The notes under the pieces were generated by a model. That model was given only the letters and a program-made list of their open reading frames with translations. It had not been told where the DNA came from and did not search any database. The position numbers and the translations under genes are program-made. This document shows, piece by piece, positions 815 through 18,329 of a stretch of DNA of 19,782 nt (position 1 is its first letter; the number at the start of each line of letters is the position of its first letter). The stretch lies in the IMG/VR virus record IMGVR_UViG_2711768053_000018, positions 1 to 19,782 of that record, one strand, 5' to 3'. Origin of the DNA: a virus (Duplodnaviria > Heunggongvirae > Uroviricota > Caudoviricetes).

Positions 815-889
<75 letters not shown>

Positions 890-892
890 ATA

Positions 893-968
<76 letters not shown>

Positions 969-5127: not shown

Positions 5128-5615
5128 TGATTCACCTCCTGCGGTGGTTCCGGTAGCGGCATCCAGTGTGATGGTATCCACGACGCACTAGGTATTACCC
5201 ACCCATCATTAGCGTCAGGATGCCCCGGGATGTAAGTCGCCCATTTCATTCTCCAGTCACCTTTCCTGTCAAACTCCCTGGCAACAAGAACGGCTGTTTT
5301 GCTATCTGGCATTCGCTCACTACAGCTTATCCAACCATCTGGAGCTACCGTCGCTGGCGGGGCGGTGTAAAGTGGAACAACTCGCCCTCCCCATTGCTTA
5401 ACACTACTCTCAGCGAACACTAAATGCTCAGTCCGATAATACCCAGGGGCATCAATATCTTTTCTTTCACTATCCCACATGTAAACCACCGGTTCAGCTT
5501 CCAGCGAGGCTAACGCTATTTCATAAGCCCGGCGCTCAATATTGTCTCGCACGTCTAGGCTGCCTATGCGCTCTTTGATTTCTTTAATCAGTTCTTTGTC
5601 GGTGAAAGTTGTCAT
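5124..5615 (-). CDS. DUF551-like phage protein
   Basis: 163 aa with C-terminal WISCSERMPD...WMPLPEPP, recalled as typical of DUF551 proteins in lambdoid nin regions. Confidence 0.65.
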   Translation of the reverse strand: MTTFTDKELIKEIKERIGSLDVRDNIERRAYEIALASLEAEPVVYMWDSERKDIDAPGYYRTEHLVFAESSVKQWGGRVVPLYTAPPATVAPDGWISCSERMPDSKTAVLVAREFDRKGDWRMKWATYIPGHPDANDGWVIPSASWIPSHWMPLPEPPQEVNQ

Positions 5616-8893: not shown

Positions 8894-9559
8894 TCAAACA
8901 AAACCAGCCGCTTTCCGGCGTTCATATTCCTGTTTCAGCAACTCAATTGGTGTTGGCCCCGACGGGCGTTCTGGTGCTGCCAGTTGCCGCCGTACGGGCG
9001 GAACGCTGAAGCCGTCACCAACATGCTTTGCCCATTTCGCCAGTTGCCGTTCTGCAAGTCGTTTTAACTCCCCTTCGGTCATCTGGCGCTCAATCCCCTT
9101 TGAACGCATCTCGAGGCAAATGTGATACAGCACAGGCTGAGACCACGGGTATTTATCGCTTCCGTCGTATCGCCAGGACTCGTTGCGCCAGCGTCGGTAC
9201 TCCTCCATCACAGCATCCACCGTCAGACCGAATGGATTGGCCCCGCTTTCCGAAATCAGCGCCACAAACTCAGCCAGGTCCGGAGGCCATGTTTCACCCG
9301 TCCGGCAGCGGTCCATGCACTGGCGGCAGACCTGTCGGATTTGCTGCTCAGTCATCGCACCAATCTGTGCAATCCAGAGCTTCGAAGGTGCGGCCCCGTT
9401 CTTCTGGGTCCAGCGGTTCGAATAAACCTCCCCCATGAGTTCCCACAACTTCCAGGCCGTTTCCGTCGCTGATAAATCCGTTTTCACGTTCCCACTGCTC
9501 ACGTGCTGCCCGAATTTCCTGAACTGCCCGTGATGCGGTGCCACCTGGTGCTGCTGCAT
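8894..9559 (-). CDS. Replication protein P-like (helicase-loader family)
   Basis: Colinear similarity to lambda P from memory ([46 protein letters not shown]). Start uncertain: the track start 9559 overlaps the O-like ORF by 212 nt; internal ATGs are at 9436 and 9358. Confidence 0.65.
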
Positions 9560-10472
9560 GGTTCACCCCCTTGCTGACTGGTTTAACCTGCGCCCTGACG
9601 TGATTTACGTGACGGGCGAATTTCTGCTCCCACTGAACCTGCGTGAAAACTTTCCCCTCCGCTGCCCAGTAGTCCCGGAAGGCGGCAAGTTCAGCTGGTG
9701 TAAATTCCGGCTCCGGCAGAGCCACTCCCCACAGAGCTGCCCGCCGTCGAAAATCCAGCGACGGATGCCAGCCATCAGTCATCGGAAATTTCCCGATGGG
9801 TTCGTTCAGGCCTTCCAGGTAATCAGGTTCCGCTGTCTGCAACGGCACGCCATTTGCCTCACTGGCCGGAGCACTCTCGCGCACGCGCGCGTTATGTGTG
9901 GGGTTTATATATCTGTTATCTGTTATCTGGATACCGCATGACAAAGCGTTAGCCTTATCCTTAGGCTTATCCTCAGGCAAAGGGATTGCCTTATCGAATG
10001 CCATCCCCAAAGCCTCAGAAACCCCATAGGACGCGGCTCTCAGCGATTCCCTAGCCTCCCATTTGAGAGGACAATCAGGAATTAAAGCGAATGCCTTTGC
10101 CCAGGATTTAATGACATTTATCGAGTTTGGCGGATTGTGTTTCGCAGCATTCGGGAGCCAAAAAACTCTGGCTTTGATATCTGCTTTCACCATGCCAAGA
10201 TTCATGGCTTCGCCTAAGGCTAAGTCAAAGGCTTCGATATCCCACCCCAACTCTTCAGCCATTGCTGCCCGCCCGGCTTTAAACAACCCAGGAATAATCC
10301 CGGTAAATGGACTGGTCAGCAGATAAATAAACAAACTCTGTCCACTTGGAGGCAGAGGAGATAACGCCCTAAATTTGGGATCATCCCATATCGTTATTTT
10401 TACCTTGCGATAAGGCTCATTGTTTGCCTTAGTTTTTGGCATGGGATTTGGCATATTTTTAGCCTTAACCAT
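9348..10472 (-). CDS. Replication initiator (O-like) with a DnaT-like C-terminal region
   Basis: Track ORF 9348..10526 begins with a TTG; first ATG is at 10472 (MVKAKNMP...) with GAGG at 5-nt spacing. Contains an internal iteron/AT-rich region, as in lambda O. C-terminal region resembles the DnaT-type domain from memory. Confidence 0.6.
9906..9996. repeat. Putative replication origin: iteron-like repeats plus AT-rich tract inside the O-like gene
   Basis: Three copies of G(C/G)CTTATC(C/G) at 9952-9960, 9964-9972 and 9988-9996 (12- and 24-bp spacing), then an AT-rich tract with tandem ATCTGTT repeats at 9906-9933. In the direction of O translation, iterons precede the AT-rich tract, as in lambda ori. 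Confidence 0.45.
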
Positions 10473-10551
10473 AATTGCCTCATCTGGTGTCGAACCTTCC
10501 TCCGGATATAATCTGTGATTCCCCAATCAACAGAACCAAAGGAGGTTCGAC

Positions 10552-10803
10552 ATGTCTTTTACATTTGATAAGTCTGCTCCATTCCCACAAAAATTTTGGG
10601 TGGACAGTATTACTGGAACCGAGTCAAAAATTTTTAGCACCTCAGGAATGCTCAATCGCGGAGGAGTAAAAATACTTGCCCAGGAATTCCACACACAGGA
10701 GCTAAATTACGGGGCTTATCACAAACTAGAGTTGATAATGGATGCAACCCAAATTGATGAACTGATCGTTGCCCTACAAAAGCTAAAAGAAAAGATGTCA
10801 TAA
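10552..10803 (+). CDS. Hypothetical 83-aa protein, antisense to the early-right operon
   Basis: Strong AAGGAGG RBS at 7-nt spacing. AT-rich by eye. A perfect TATAAT sits at 10507-10512 upstream. Stop codon directly abuts the stop of the convergent gene at 10804. Confidence 0.5.
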   Translation: MSFTFDKSAPFPQKFWVDSITGTESKIFSTSGMLNRGGVKILAQEFHTQELNYGAYHKLELIMDATQIDELIVALQKLKEKMS

Positions 10804-11100
10804 TCACCCCCTAAAAATTACGTGGCGCAGCGGTTGAGCTTTGCTGTAGTCGATCTCATCGCCATACTCAATATCAAGAGCTTGTCCCTGCGCCAGTTCC
10901 ATCCACCGAATGTGTTCTGCGGCTTTTTCTTTATCTTTGATATTGATGAACAACAGCGTTGACGAGGGATACCCGTTAACAAGATGGCGATGCAGAGAGA
11001 GTCGTATGGCATACCAGGCAACATTTCGGGCTATACGCTGAAGCAATGTTTCGCCTTCCAGTGTTTTAAGTCGGTATTTTTTCAGTTCATATTTTTCCAT
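10804..11100 (-). CDS. Hypothetical 98-aa protein immediately downstream of ydaT
   Basis: ATG at 11100 (MEKYELKK...) with AAGGTGA 7 nt upstream; the track ORF starts at a GTG at 11106. Confidence 0.5.
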   Translation of the reverse strand: MEKYELKKYRLKTLEGETLLQRIARNVAWYAIRLSLHRHLVNGYPSSTLLFINIKDKEKAAEHIRWMELAQGQALDIEYGDEIDYSKAQPLRHVIFRG

Positions 11101-11112
11101 CACCACATCACC

Positions 11113-11535
11113 TTAATGAACAACAACAGAATCGCCGGACGAACCACCGCCGCTGAAATGCGCTTTCCGGTAAACGGCCTGGACTGCATCATCATGCGCA
11201 TCAATTGCCGTACTCAACGCTTCCTGCGCCGCCAGTAATGCACGGCGTTCCAGGGTATCGAAGATGCAGAGTCGGTGACGCAGCTCGCGCGGAAGGATTG
11301 CCAGAATTGCTGGGATCAGCTTCTGAATTTTTTCTCTTTGCGTTTTCGTTTCACCTTTCAACCAACGGTGATAGATATTCTGCTGATTGTTCCAGTCCTT
11401 GCCTGGAACCAGGGGCAATTCGCCGCCCCCCTGGCGCAGATATTCTTCAGTAATTGCATTGGCTACCCATGCCTGCCCTTTTTCGGCTGCCAGGGCAAAC
11501 AACACTGATTCGATGTGCTCATGCTTGATTTTCAT
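11113..11535 (-). CDS. ydaT: YdaT-like protein (Rac early-right operon)
   Basis: 140 aa, same length as K-12 YdaT from memory, and positioned directly after ydaS. Confidence 0.75.
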   Translation of the reverse strand: MKIKHEHIESVLFALAAEKGQAWVANAITEEYLRQGGGELPLVPGKDWNNQQNIYHRWLKGETKTQREKIQKLIPAILAILPRELRHRLCIFDTLERRALLAAQEALSTAIDAHDDAVQAVYRKAHFSGGGSSGDSVVVH

Positions 11536-11557
11536 GAATCATTTGCCTCTTGATGTT

Positions 11558-11854
11558 TCAGGTATGATCAAATGAGGATTTGTTACTGTCATTTAGTTGC
11601 TTCACTGACATATTCTGCGAACAACATGCCGAACGTCGTAAATATGACCAGTCAATATCAGGACGAAGCTCTTCGCACAGAACCTCACCTCTTGTTGCTC
11701 GTTCAATTGCTGGACATCTCTCGGCAGGCAATTGACGTACCCCTTTGATCCATTGATTTACGCTTGGAGGTGATACACCTAAAAGCCTAGCCATTGCTGA
11801 TTGCCCACCGACAACAGCACAAGCTTGCTTGAATGAATAGTTCTCTTTTTTCAT
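11558..11854 (-). CDS. ydaS: YdaS-like Cro-type HTH protein
   Basis: 98 aa with HTH segment QACAVVGGQSAMARLLGVSPPSVNQW; divergent from racR across the operator region; GGAG RBS. Confidence 0.8.
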   Translation of the reverse strand: MKKENYSFKQACAVVGGQSAMARLLGVSPPSVNQWIKGVRQLPAERCPAIERATRGEVLCEELRPDIDWSYLRRSACCSQNMSVKQLNDSNKSSFDHT

Positions 11855-11880
11855 CGAATGAACTCCAAAAACACACAGAA

Positions 11881-11955
11881 ATATTAGGCGACGCCTAATA
11901 TAAATGTCAATAGGCTATGCCTAATGCGATAAAGATAGGGATTGCCTAATGCAAT
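11881..11955. promoter_or_regulatory. OR-like operator/promoter region between racR and ydaS
   Basis: Perfect 21-bp palindrome ATATTAGGCGACGCCTAATAT (11881-11901) and further TTAGGC/GCCTAA half-sites. Minus-strand promoter candidate TTGACA (11910-11905), 18-nt spacer, TAATAT (11886-11881) aimed at ydaS. Confidence 0.55.
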
Positions 11956-11977
11956 GAGCATAGGAGAATATTAAGCA

Positions 11978-12454
11978 ATGCTTAGTGGTAAAGACTTAGG
12001 CCGAGCGATAGAGCAGGCCATTAACAAAAAAATCGCATCGGGATCCGTCAAATCAAAGGCGGAGGTCGCACGCCACTTCAAAGTCCAACCACCATCAATT
12101 TATGACTGGATTAAGAAAGGCTCCATAAGTAAAGATAAACTTCCAGAATTATGGCGTTTCTTTTCTGATGTTGTTGGTCCAGAGCATTGGGGGCTTAACG
12201 AATACCCCATACCAACCCCCACCAATTCAGATACAAAAAGTGAACTTTTAGATATAAACAACCTTTATCAAGCAGCCTCTGATGAAATTAGAGCGATTGT
12301 AGCTTTCCTGTTATCTGGAAATGCTACAGAACCAGATTGGGTTGACCACGATGTTCGCGCCTACATAGCAGCGATGGAAATGAAAGTGGGTAAGTATCTG
12401 AAAGCTCTAGAATCTGAACGGAAAAGCCAGAACATCACAAAAACTGGAACTTAA
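11978..12454 (+). CDS. racR: Prophage repressor RacR-like
   Basis: 158 aa (same length as K-12 RacR from memory). N-terminal HTH-like segment, AGGAGA RBS, flanked by operator clusters on both sides. Confidence 0.8.
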   Translation: MLSGKDLGRAIEQAINKKIASGSVKSKAEVARHFKVQPPSIYDWIKKGSISKDKLPELWRFFSDVVGPEHWGLNEYPIPTPTNSDTKSELLDINNLYQAASDEIRAIVAFLLSGNATEPDWVDHDVRAYIAAMEMKVGKYLKALESERKSQNITKTGT

Positions 12455-12529
12455 ACTTATATGGTCTGACGGAAAACTCCTGGATTCCGTTATTTAACCC
12501 CCCCATCATTTTCTCCTGTCGCCATCACC

Positions 12530-12595
12530 TATTAGGTTACGCCCAAAACATTAGGCATAGCCTATTGACAATCAATTAGGCATTACCTATAGTTC
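12530..12595 (+). promoter_or_regulatory. OL/pL-like operator and near-consensus sigma70 promoter driving the + strand operon toward int
   Basis: TTGACA (12565-12570), 17-nt spacer, TATAGT (12588-12593). TTAGGC-type half-sites at 12532, 12551 and 12576. Contains a 22-mer identical to the OR promoter module. Confidence 0.6.
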
Positions 12596-12762
12596 CAGCA
12601 TACCACCCACCCCGCCACACAGAACGCCGGGCAATACTTCGAGTTACCAGGCAGTGGTAAGGGGTTAAGTAGCCAGCCCGAGGCGTATGAACATGACGGC
12701 GGGATTCAAATTTTGCAGTGCAGCAGTTAGTTCCGCCACCCGGCGTTAAGGGGAGAGATAAG

Positions 12763-17839: not shown

Positions 17840-18049
17840 TTTATGACAAAAACTTTGAGATATGACGATGTTAAACCATGTCCGTTTTGTGGTTGTCCAT
17901 CAGTAACGGTGAAAGACATTTCAGGATATTACCGGGCAAAATGCAACGGATGCGAATCCCGAACTGGCTATGGTGGAAGTGAAAAAGAAGCGCTCGAAAG
18001 ATGGAATAAACGAACTACTGAAAATATTAATGGAGGCGTTCATGTATAA
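17840..18049 (+). CDS. ralR: Restriction alleviation protein RalR (Lar)
   Basis: Start at ATG 17840 (MTKTLRYDDVKPCPFCGCPS...); Cys-rich; matches Rac RalR from memory. Confidence 0.8.
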   Translation, partial: FMTKTLRYDDVKPCPFCGCPSVTVKDISGYYRAKCNGCESRTGYGGSEKEALERWNKRTTENINGGVHV

Positions 18050-18230
18050 AATTACCGCTACAATTGAAAAGGAAGGTGGCACTCCTACTAACTGGACAAG
18101 ATATTCAAAATCTAAACTAACGAAATCAGAATGCGAAAAAATGCTCTCAGGTAAAAAAGAAGCAGGCGTTTCCAGAGAGCAGAAAGTAAAACTGATAAAT
18201 TTTAATTGCGAGAAACTTCAGTCCTCGTGA
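18042..18230 (+). CDS. ydaC: YdaC-like protein
   Basis: ATG 18042 (MYKITATIEKEGG...) overlapping the ralR 3' end, with GGAGG 6 nt upstream. Confidence 0.6.
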   Translation: MYKITATIEKEGGTPTNWTRYSKSKLTKSECEKMLSGKKEAGVSREQKVKLINFNCEKLQSS

Positions 18231-18329
18231 ATTGCATTGTATTCAAATTAAAACTTCATAGCTGATTATTAATAATCAACATCAGGCGTCAATTTCAGTC
18301 TAACATTGGCGCCTGCCAGAGGTGATGCG

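Follow-up and report, generated by a model that had tools for sequence, protein, structure and literature searches.

A moron is an extra, independently expressed gene lying between two conserved phage genes, a concept of Hendrix and Juhala. In phage lambda, OOP is an antisense RNA that is made from pO between cII and O, overlaps the 3' end of cII and is RNase III-dependent; it is 77 nt long, encodes no protein and ends at a terminator of its own. Hairpins processed by RNase III are known from phage early transcripts, including the T7 R-sites, the lambda N-leader and the sib sites. An RNA at the OOP position has been seen in prophage BTP1 (PMC7067206), YdaT has been described as a cII-analogue transcription factor (PMC9986795, PMC11879457), and ECs1072 is among the genes with growth-phase-dependent expression in uninduced E. 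coli O157:H7 Sakai (PMC2241611).

Here we describe an accessory cassette of 630 bp inside a Rac-like E. coli prophage, found in the window (the whole stretch of 19,782 nucleotides that was analysed, from IMG/VR record IMGVR_UViG_2711768053_000018). The cassette is flanked on one side by ydaT, the analogue of cII, and on the other by the replication genes; it consists of a 98-aa gene (the partner), an 83-aa gene (the cargo) and a conserved hairpin leader of ~70 nt (Table 1). We see an even chance that the cassette is moron-like and that its two genes would be expressed reciprocally, with the cargo made in lysogens and the partner made from pR once the prophage is induced.

Results

Table 1. Positions of the cassette, its parts and its neighbours in the window.
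Feature	Position	Strand	Details
O-like / DnaT-domain replication initiator, right neighbour	9348-10472	-	Pfam PF17948; phrog_1408
Accessory cassette	10483-11112
Promoter-like hexamers	10484-10512	+	cTGGTG (10484-10489), 17 nt, TATAAT (10507-10512); from the sequence
Conserved leader, long imperfect inverted repeat	10488-10552		Contains the cargo SD and start codon
Apical hairpin P2, CTGTGATT-CCCC-AATCA-ACAG	10512-10534		C-rich loop on the + strand
Cargo SD, AAGGAGG	10539-10545	+	6 nt before the ATG
83-aa cargo gene	10552-10803	+	ATG start; stop TAA at 10801-10803; antisense to the early-right operon
Stop-to-stop junction, TAA/TCA	10801-10806		Convergent genes; read from the sequence
98-aa partner gene	10804-11100	-	ATG at 11100; TGA stop at 10804-10806 (TCA on the + strand)
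ydaT stop overlapping an SD-like AAGGTGA	11101-11115	-	ydaT stop TAA at 11113-11115; read from the sequence
ydaT, cII-analogue transcription factor, left neighbour	11113-11535	-	Pfam PF06254 (3.9e-11); phrog_163 'CII-like'

The cassette is additional DNA at a conserved junction. The Rac prophage of K-12 lacks it entirely and runs from ydaT to ydaU across ~45 nt. Syntenic prophages of the L002 type have the same flanks and the same leader up to ATGTCTTT, followed by a different cargo. The longest ORF of the O-like gene starts with a TTG at 10526, but the PHROG match starts at residue 38 of this ORF and a phage record (PP818812) annotates a 374-aa form, so the ATG at 10472, which is preceded by GAGG, is most likely the start. 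With this start there are 79 nt between the start codons of the O-like and 83-aa genes, a gap that is filled by the leader, and the 83-aa gene does not abut the 5' end of the O-like gene as an earlier note on this DNA had proposed.

The two small genes are convergent and their stop codons touch. The ORFs and the sequence confirmed the tail-to-tail pair antisense in the early-right operon that the earlier note had described, except that the spacing between the stops is 0 nt and not 1 nt. The same junction (TAA/TCA or TGA/TCA) was found in six other loci (L004, L007, L021, L023, L025 and L026), and the exceptions were an overlap of 21 nt in L022 and a gap of 3 nt in L042. The GC content of the pair (0.41-0.47) differs modestly from that of the replication genes (0.47-0.60) and of ydaT (0.50-0.56). 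The pair, whose 83-aa gene had been called AT-rich, indeed has a lower GC content than its flanks, but with these values it is just mildly AT-rich. We found no terminator-like sites inside either gene on either strand, as the earlier note had expected, and the natural inference is that the convergent transcripts overlap.

Both genes are real, being no chance ORFs, and are under purifying selection. In comparisons with orthologues from Citrobacter and metagenomes, dN/dS was 0.18-0.34 for the 83-aa gene and 0.09-0.14 for the 98-aa gene. Both are annotated as hypothetical proteins in RefSeq (WP_000010975.1 and WP_000417086.1, respectively). The 83-aa family is small (~15 clusters, including the distant members P0018-P0022) and is maintained down to ~35% identity, with indels that are in-frame. 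The partner family has 22 clusters, all from Enterobacteriaceae and all unnamed; its conserved motifs are ET(L/V)xQRIARN(V/I)AW(Y/H)A(I/L)R and, at the C terminus, HVIFRG. The partner closes the ydaS-ydaT transcription unit, ahead of the antisense part of the cassette. Its SD-like sequence is 7 nt ahead of the ATG, and the overlap of this sequence with the stop codon of ydaT is typical of operon coupling. An alternative GTG start at 11106 would make the partner 100 aa.

Neither protein belongs to a described family. There was no family match to either one in Pfam, PHROG, NCBIfam or PADLOC, in agreement with the earlier statement that neither is recognised. The 83-aa protein is predicted to be soluble with a pI of 6.0, and its AF2 model (pLDDT 75.5) shows a beta-meander and, after it, a helix at the C terminus. 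Fold searches with this model gave weak, generic matches only; a COMM-domain-like fold consists of a three-stranded sheet and a C-terminal helix and forms obligate dimers. Sequence-profile searches of the PDB found nothing, and the cargo profile had no confirmed match in the genome contig collection. The 83-aa protein had no match among the defence models of PADLOC-DB 2.0. The partner is basic (pI 9.2), and its AF2 model was unusable (pLDDT 43).

We considered homology of the 83-aa family to two other cargos because their layout is similar. A relationship to BssS (PF13991), whose family supplies an alternative cargo of similar size (L041), was not supported: the hhalign probability was 0.9%, and none of 13 proteins of the 83-aa family and its look-alikes matched the Pfam model of BssS, even with E values up to 10. 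A relationship to a 75-aa cargo was not supported either (hhalign probability 0.2%). A 70-aa protein in L073 is a true relative of the 83-aa family (hhalign 95.8%).

The 83-aa and 98-aa genes are inherited together. The partner was present in all 18 distinct contexts that have an 83-aa family member of at least 77 aa, and also next to one frameshifted 67-aa copy of the cargo. In 16 of the 18 contexts the offset between the stops was 0; the other two had offsets of -21 and +3. The pairing was seen in Citrobacter, Salmonella, Enterobacter and metagenomic loci, at 35-57% identity for the cargo and 37-45% for the partner, and at two insertion sites, ydaT/replication and cro/cII (lambda-type cII). 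The reverse query starting from the partner gave the same picture of co-occurrence, and scans of viral, genome and metagenome collections with the partner profile returned essentially only the loci already found. Every partner-family gene examined was adjoined by an antisense small gene, and relatives of the cargo were sometimes alone, as in the divergent L024 and L073. Judged by these contexts, the two genes are a conserved, co-inherited two-gene module. The 98-aa gene is a real gene following ydaT, as the earlier note described it, but it is the dedicated partner of the 83-aa gene and not an independent neighbour.

The strict co-occurrence of two small proteins could point to a toxin and an antidote in an addiction or abortive-infection-like system. 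The basic partner would be harmful when made by leaky early-right transcription or during phage infection, a cargo that the lysogen makes constitutively would neutralize it (or the roles would be reversed), and convergent transcription would set the ratio. The presence of an antisense small gene beside every partner, and not the reverse, would be expected if the partner were the dangerous component. However, the genes are convergent and not in an operon as in type II toxin-antitoxin systems, and neither has a toxin or antitoxin domain in Pfam, NCBIfam or PADLOC; the single match of the partner in PADLOC-DB 2.0 was weak and covered 45 residues of HEC-05 (E=0.0027). Neither protein has a hydrophobic segment like those of the small membrane toxins of type I systems (highest Kyte-Doolittle 19-residue window: cargo 0.69, partner 0.51). 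Further, frameshifted cargo copies were found beside an intact partner (L019/L020 and L147), and in a Salmonella locus (L023) a partner that is 92% identical accompanies a cargo that is just 46% identical, which counts against a highly specific protein-protein match. We consider a toxin and its antidote unlikely.

The leader is much more widespread than the pair that follows it here. It occupies the ~70 nt before the cargo ATG, and it was invariant in five loci whose coding parts differ by 13-20% and was present in all of the distant loci of the pair. We found it in 93 viral contigs (40 distinct variants); of 5426 complete E. coli genomes, 635 (12%) also have it. It precedes at least eight unrelated cargo families, which are always antisense to the early-right operon. 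One of these is the ECs1072-type cargo (NF033230) in CP-933P of E. coli O157:H7, which has the same leader in the same slot, antisense between ydaT and the replication genes. ECs1072 is unlike the 83-aa protein in that its sequence is unrelated and it is ~151 aa long; no gene is annotated between it and ydaT in CP-933P, and the partner-family HMM had no match beside ECs1072-type cargos in viral contigs. The other cargos of the slot had no match to PADLOC defence models. Neither the leader sequence nor an antisense gene located at the ydaT/replication junction turned up in literature searches. To our knowledge, the cII/replication junction of lambdoid phages has not been described as an accessory-gene hotspot. 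The leader marks a slot of general use for antisense cargo, located where lambda has its OOP RNA. The AAGGAGG and TATAAT upstream of the 83-aa gene, which had been attributed to that gene, are both present, but they belong to this widespread leader and do not make up a private promoter. The AAGGAGG was invariant in all leaders, in part since the search pattern required it.

The likeness to OOP raises the possibility that the + transcript functions chiefly as an antisense RNA. It would be an extended OOP analogue that continues unterminated through the partner and ydaT and lowers expression of the cII analogue via RNase III, with a lesser role for the 83-aa protein. On the map, the cargo lies in the same place as lambda pO/OOP and points the same way, running from beside the replication initiator towards the cII analogue, and there was no terminator-like site on the + strand beyond the 83-aa gene, from 10803 to 12600, and thus none before ydaT. 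Further, in the same loci the cargo has diverged far less at synonymous sites (dS 0.33-0.44) than the partner (dS 0.83-1.26), as if these sites were under an extra constraint, although recombination history may equally account for this. In contrast to OOP, the cassette transcript would have no terminator and would encode a protein under purifying selection that is kept to 35% identity with in-frame indels and has a near-perfect SD. Unrelated protein-coding cargos share the leader, which argues that the slot delivers proteins. Visual inspection of the lambda sequence found no similarity between the leader region and the OOP region. We regard a chiefly antisense function as quite unlikely.

The leader folds into a hairpin of ~26 bp that is supported by covariation. 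In the outer stem, GTCGAACCTTCC.. pairs with ..GGAGGTTCGAC-AT. RNAalifold, given the + strand as aligned by MAFFT, did not recover the long hairpin, so we took the structure from folds of single sequences and then tested it by counting pairs. There were 42 double-change cells compared to 15 expected, and none of 500 shuffles reached 42. Compensatory changes were found in P2 (UA 21 and GC 13 at one pair; UA 19, GC 9 and AU 7 at another). Searches of Rfam with the leader region gave nothing significant (best E value 0.27, far below gathering scores).

The hairpin pairs better in the rightward early (-) transcript than in the + strand. Folding z-scores were -3.4 to -7.4 for the - strand and -1.8 to -5.4 for the + strand, with the - strand better in all eight cases, and the mean MFE was -31.2 versus -24.1 kcal/mol, lower on the - strand in 37 of 38. 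For the same 26 pairs, 91.1% of cells were paired on the - strand versus 78.3% on the + strand, and slid controls had 39-52%. Part of this bias could come from the G+U richness of the - strand, though the z-scores control for composition. With its length of about two turns of double-stranded RNA, its internal loops, its conservation by covariation and its location between early polycistronic genes, the hairpin resembles known RNase III processing sites and is a candidate for such a site; it is unlike them in that its other strand encodes the translation start of a gene.

The leader also contains promoter-like signals that overlap the hairpin. Most of 38 leader variants have TTGGTG-N16-18-TAnnnT, ending 36-40 nt before the ATG. 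These hexamers match the consensus weakly (6-9 of 12 positions, with a poor -35), and their conservation could not be separated from the constraint that the hairpin puts on the same bases. A putative transcription start ~7 nt past the TATAAT would fall inside P2 and would leave the SD unpaired. We rejected a pO-like promoter, TTGGCA-16-CATAAT (10448-10475), that, like its lambda counterpart, overlaps the start codon of the O-like gene; it was not conserved in other contexts, and its CATAAT is the complement of AATTATG, which is found also in K-12. We also rejected a YdaT operator at TGATT-CCCC-AATCA (10516-10529), shortly downstream of the TATAAT. The half-sites resemble those of the YdaT box, but the spacer is 4 nt and not 6, and at the equivalent place in other leaders complementarity is kept and sequence is not, with loops of 4-11 nt; we therefore read this motif as the RNA hairpin P2. 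The true YdaT box of the window, TTGATTTTCATGAATCAT (11525-11542), is identical to the footprinted box of K-12.

That the two genes are functionally unrelated hitch-hikers, tightly packed behind a leader that is a recombination linker with no RNA function, would fit the unassigned function of both proteins, the mosaic exchange exactly at the leader and apparently also at the stop-stop junction (L023), and the short conserved boundary sequences that are a known feature of lambdoid mosaicism, but it is very unlikely, given that the pairing and the abutting stops survive at 35-40% identity and move to a different operon junction, and that a pure DNA linker needs neither compensatory changes nor a strand bias.

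Discussion

The cassette is similar to a moron in several ways and differs from one in others. The earlier note had suggested a moron, and this reading is consistent with the DNA being extra at the same junction relative to K-12 Rac, with the GC content that sets it apart from its flanks, and with its promoter-like signals, strong RBS and exchange for unrelated genes in syntenic prophages; a terminator of its own was not found. Expression may also be coupled to early transcription, as the earlier note had suggested. Unlike a moron, the cassette is antisense inside an essential early operon, has a structured leader that is common to many cargos and, in this allele, has a dedicated convergent partner.

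We suggest that reciprocal expression of the two genes would work as follows. In the lysogen, the early-right promoter would be repressed and the cargo would be made from the predicted promoter inside the leader. An indirect pointer to expression from a repressed prophage is that ECs1072, a cargo of this slot, responds to growth phase in uninduced Sakai (PMC2241611). On induction, the partner would be made from the early-right promoter together with ydaS-ydaT, and this transcription would collide with, and be complementary to, the + transcript of the cargo, so that the cargo would be shut off. If expression is reciprocal in this way, then it is most likely one and the same process that the two proteins act on. 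Early in lytic growth, the partner would undo whatever effect the cargo has in the lysogen, and the cassette would combine a factor for the lysogen phase with a built-in antidote for the lytic phase. The poorly matched pair in L023, the cargo relatives L024 and L073 that have no partner, and the frameshifted cargo copies next to intact partners count against this reading. The hairpin in the rightward transcript is probably an RNA processing or stabilizing element (an RNase III-type substrate), and it would allow expression of the replication genes after polymerase has crossed the antisense gene.

We also put forward, tentatively and as a doubtful proposal, a broader interpretation of the leader and the pair. 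The leader might be a docking platform for swappable, antisense, lysogen-expressed cargo, providing a promoter, an RBS and a start codon on one strand and, on the other, a hairpin for RNA processing or insulation that rescues the replication genes. The pair would then be a self-contained switch, a lysogen factor with its lytic antidote, wired by convergent transcription.

Genes for defence, virulence and regulation tend to be located in accessory-gene hotspots of prophages, and the leader offers a simple sequence tag by which at least eight families of uncharacterized small proteins can be catalogued. The hairpin, which has a translation start on one strand and gives a structured RNA from the opposite one, is a testable example of overlapping constraints. 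The pair is a compact, spacer-free, tail-to-tail example of two protein genes, and a natural test case for whether convergent transcription may confine one of two proteins to lysogeny and the other to lytic growth.

The antisense gene pair is part of a Rac-like prophage

The window is a Rac-like lambdoid prophage of E. coli, an affinity confirmed by the RalA sRNA, which marks a Rac-type left arm. The immunity region is followed by a convergent gene pair, an 83-aa gene (the cargo) and a 98-aa gene (the partner), and then by replication genes.

Features of the prophage around the cargo/partner pair
Feature	Position	Strand	Remarks
racR-like repressor	11978-12454	+	immunity region
ydaS/cro analogue	11558-11854	-	immunity region
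ydaT/cII analogue	11113-11535	-	immunity region
YdaT box	11525-11542		TTGATTTTCATGAATCAT; over ydaT start codon
98-aa partner gene	10804-11100	-	stop read as TCA
83-aa cargo gene	10552-10803	+	stop TAA
O-like DnaT-domain replication gene		-	downstream of pair
lambda-P-like gene		-	downstream of pair
DUF1627 gene		-	downstream of pair
YdaT-box look-alike	5576-5590		TGATTTCTTTAATCA; 5-nt spacer
RalA sRNA, antitoxin of RalR/RalA	18048-18226	-	Rfam RF02694, 218 bits
YdaT-box look-alike	18262-18279		CTGATTATTAATAATCAA; 6-nt spacer, 1 mismatch, 36 nt from RalA sRNA
tRNA-Gly(UCC) and tRNA-Thr(UGU)	815-968	-	adjacent, inside prophage

The YdaT box is the reverse complement of the 'YdaT-box' ATGATTCATGAAAATCAA footprinted in K-12 Rac (PMC11879457). 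Because the two are identical, the Rac YdaT autoregulatory site has been kept in this prophage. The pattern TGATT-N2-10-AATCA occurs four times in the window versus 0.47 expected, and the two look-alike sites of the table may be further YdaT targets, by analogy with the cII-activated pI and paQ promoters of lambda.

Both genes are real coding genes, as judged from their low dN/dS against orthologues 80-87% identical from Citrobacter and a metagenomic contig (0.18-0.34 for the cargo and 0.09-0.14 for the partner). An earlier note had described them as a tail-to-tail pair separated by one nucleotide; the pair is confirmed, but its stops touch with zero spacer (TAA|TCA). Also confirmed were the two signals that the note placed upstream of the cargo, AAGGAGG at a distance of 6 nt from the ATG and TATAAT at 10507-10512. 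The AT-richness of the pair proved mild, the GC content of the pair (0.41-0.47) being slightly below that of the flanks. No terminator-like sites were found within or between the genes. AAGGTGA overlaps the ydaT stop ahead of the partner, an arrangement that indicates coupling of the partner to ydaT in the operon.

As the note had stated, neither protein is recognised: there were no matches in Pfam, PHROGs, NCBIfam or PADLOC, and RefSeq labels both as hypothetical proteins in the 19 complete E. coli genomes with a copy of the region at least 98% identical. The partner is basic, with a strongly conserved ETLxQRIARNxAWYAxR helix and HVIFRG C-terminus; the cargo protein is near neutral, and neither has a membrane segment.

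The cargo probably does not sit against the 5' end of the O-like gene, as had been proposed. For the O-like gene, ATG 10472 (374 aa), which is backed by a PHROG match and a phage record, is a likelier start than the TTG that opens its longest ORF, and therefore 79 nt separate the two genes. RefSeq uses an internal ATG (window 10262, 304 aa; window 9348-10526, - strand; L001 2049-2963), and this start in PGAP records looks like a mis-annotation. The annotated start of ydaU in K-12 MG1655 is an ATG that lies 12 nt past the ydaT stop (ydaT-ydaU junction, L127 1808-1880). This start may be too far upstream, because relatives keep GGGGCAATT-ATGGCCGCAT as RBS and start ~55 nt downstream.

A conserved leader defines a slot for antisense cargos

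The 70 nt before the cargo ATG (the leader) were invariant among loci whose coding parts differed by 13-20%. In otherwise syntenic prophages, identity spans the leader up to ATGTCTTT, beyond which a different 151-aa ORF follows. A pattern built from the 3' half of the leader matched 93 viral contigs, and the ORFs behind it belong to at least eight unrelated families: the 83-aa family, two of ~151-157 aa (one being the NCBIfam 'ECs1072 family'), one of 97-99 aa (phrog_4753), a BssS-family protein, and proteins of 75, 78, 72 and 88 aa. None of these cargo families matched PADLOC defence models.

Of 5426 complete E. coli genomes, 635 contain the leader. One of its sites is O157:H7 prophage CP-933P, where the stretch from ydaT to the replication genes holds ECs1072 in antisense orientation, a gene left undiscussed in published maps of the region. 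K-12 Rac has neither leader nor cassette, and junction alignment with it gave cassette limits of ~10483-11112 (630 bp).

An alternative cassette (L002 3253-3886, E. coli 06-00048; L125 3577-4210) has a 151-aa + strand ORF behind the leader that overlaps a 137-aa - strand ORF by 236 nt. Only the latter is in the RefSeq annotation. The 151-aa ORF is probably the real gene or a missed one, as it is kept across divergent relatives together with its C-terminal LPELRWSDLPNELF motif. The record 'Actinobacillus phage vB_Apl-pPE4' (L125, PP818812.1) has a 100% identical leader copy and a Rac-like immunity region, and looks like enterobacterial sequence under another host label.

Cargo and partner are inherited together as a module

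Few distant cargo relatives (35-57% identity) came out of a full-library profile search, and each is preceded by the leader. All five that we looked up (P0018-P0022) belong to lambdoid prophages and are antisense within the early-right operon. Four of them have a convergent partner homologue whose stop abuts or overlaps; in two loci the pair lies between cro and a lambda-type cII rather than after ydaT. A systematic scan gave 18 distinct contexts whose family member has at least 77 aa, and every one had the partner; the stops were offset by 0 in 16 of them, by -21 in another and by +3 in the last. The partner family comprises 22 unnamed clusters, all of them from Enterobacteriaceae, and a search begun from it showed this arrangement again in Enterobacter, Citrobacter and other genomes.

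A strict cognate-pair reading is limited by two divergent cargo relatives that lack the partner (L024 and L073), by frameshifted cargos next to an intact partner, and by a Salmonella locus in which the partner is 92% identical and the cargo only 46%. A different 75-aa antisense gene replaces the cargo in two partner-bearing loci. A weak partner paralogue (ETRLQRIRFNLAWYALRL) overlaps the 3' 170-176 nt of 75-/72-aa antisense cargos (L028 3785-4151, Yokenella; L029, L100, L066), and may embody this two-gene logic in an overlapping convergent form. Another cargo relative (P0011) is encoded on a 253-bp contig labelled 'Acinetobacter baumannii', which looks like enterobacterial sequence under the wrong host name.

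Covariation supports a leader hairpin favoured on the - strand

One long hairpin was predicted in each of 38 distinct leader variants. In the outer stem, bases ahead of the -10-like element are paired with those around the Shine-Dalgarno and the start codon, and at the tip of the structure is a variable apical hairpin, P2, that retains complementarity despite changing sequence and loop length. With a fixed 26-pair structure, 91.1% of cells were paired on the - strand (39-52% in slid controls); double-change cells numbered 42 versus 15 expected, a count reached in none of 500 shuffles. The + strand mirror structure was 78.3% paired, because G·U positions on the - strand become C·A mismatches; at one stem position, 33 of the 38 variants have U·G. 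The - strand had the better folding z-score in all 8 cases (mean -5.3 vs -3.7) and the lower minimum free energy in 37 of 38 variants. We rejected an intrinsic terminator because neither strand has a U-tract after the hairpin. Rfam gave nothing significant for it (lowest E 0.27, well short of the gathering scores), and the leader sequence was not found in the literature searched.

A promoter is expected inside the conserved block, because the cassette moves between unrelated flanks. In most variants, TTGGTG-N16-18-TAnnnT stops 36-40 nt short of the ATG; the best version is that of the window (cTGGTG-17-TATAAT), although only 6-9 of 12 hexamer positions match the consensus. A putative start ~7 nt past the -10 would fall inside P2. 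With such a start, the 5' arm would be missing from the cargo mRNA, whose Shine-Dalgarno would be free, and the complete hairpin would be confined to the rightward transcript; this inferred scheme agrees with the strand bias.

Proposed working of the cassette

The earlier reading of the pair as a moron is partly supported. We propose reciprocal expression: cargo would be produced in the lysogen and, on induction, partner would be produced together with ydaS-ydaT, with cargo silenced by convergent transcription and sense-antisense pairing. The partner would be a lytic-phase counter to the cargo, and the hairpin an RNase III-type processing or stabilising element of the early transcript. The only hint about expression comes from a different cargo of the slot, ECs1072, which is growth-phase regulated in uninduced Sakai (PMC2241611).

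Alternatively, the cassette might function mainly through antisense RNA, with which the lower synonymous divergence of the cargo is compatible. In window 10552-11100 compared with L004 and L007, dS was 2-4 times lower in the cargo (0.33-0.44) than in the adjoining partner (0.83-1.26) within the same loci, indicating either recombination at the stop-stop junction or extra constraint on the cargo RNA. The pair might also be a toxin-antidote module, or two unrelated hitch-hikers whose linker is purely recombinational.

The unit has the position and direction of lambda pO/OOP but, unlike it, encodes proteins and has no terminator. What is new is a dedicated convergent partner together with a conserved dual-strand hairpin leader that defines a widespread antisense cargo slot.
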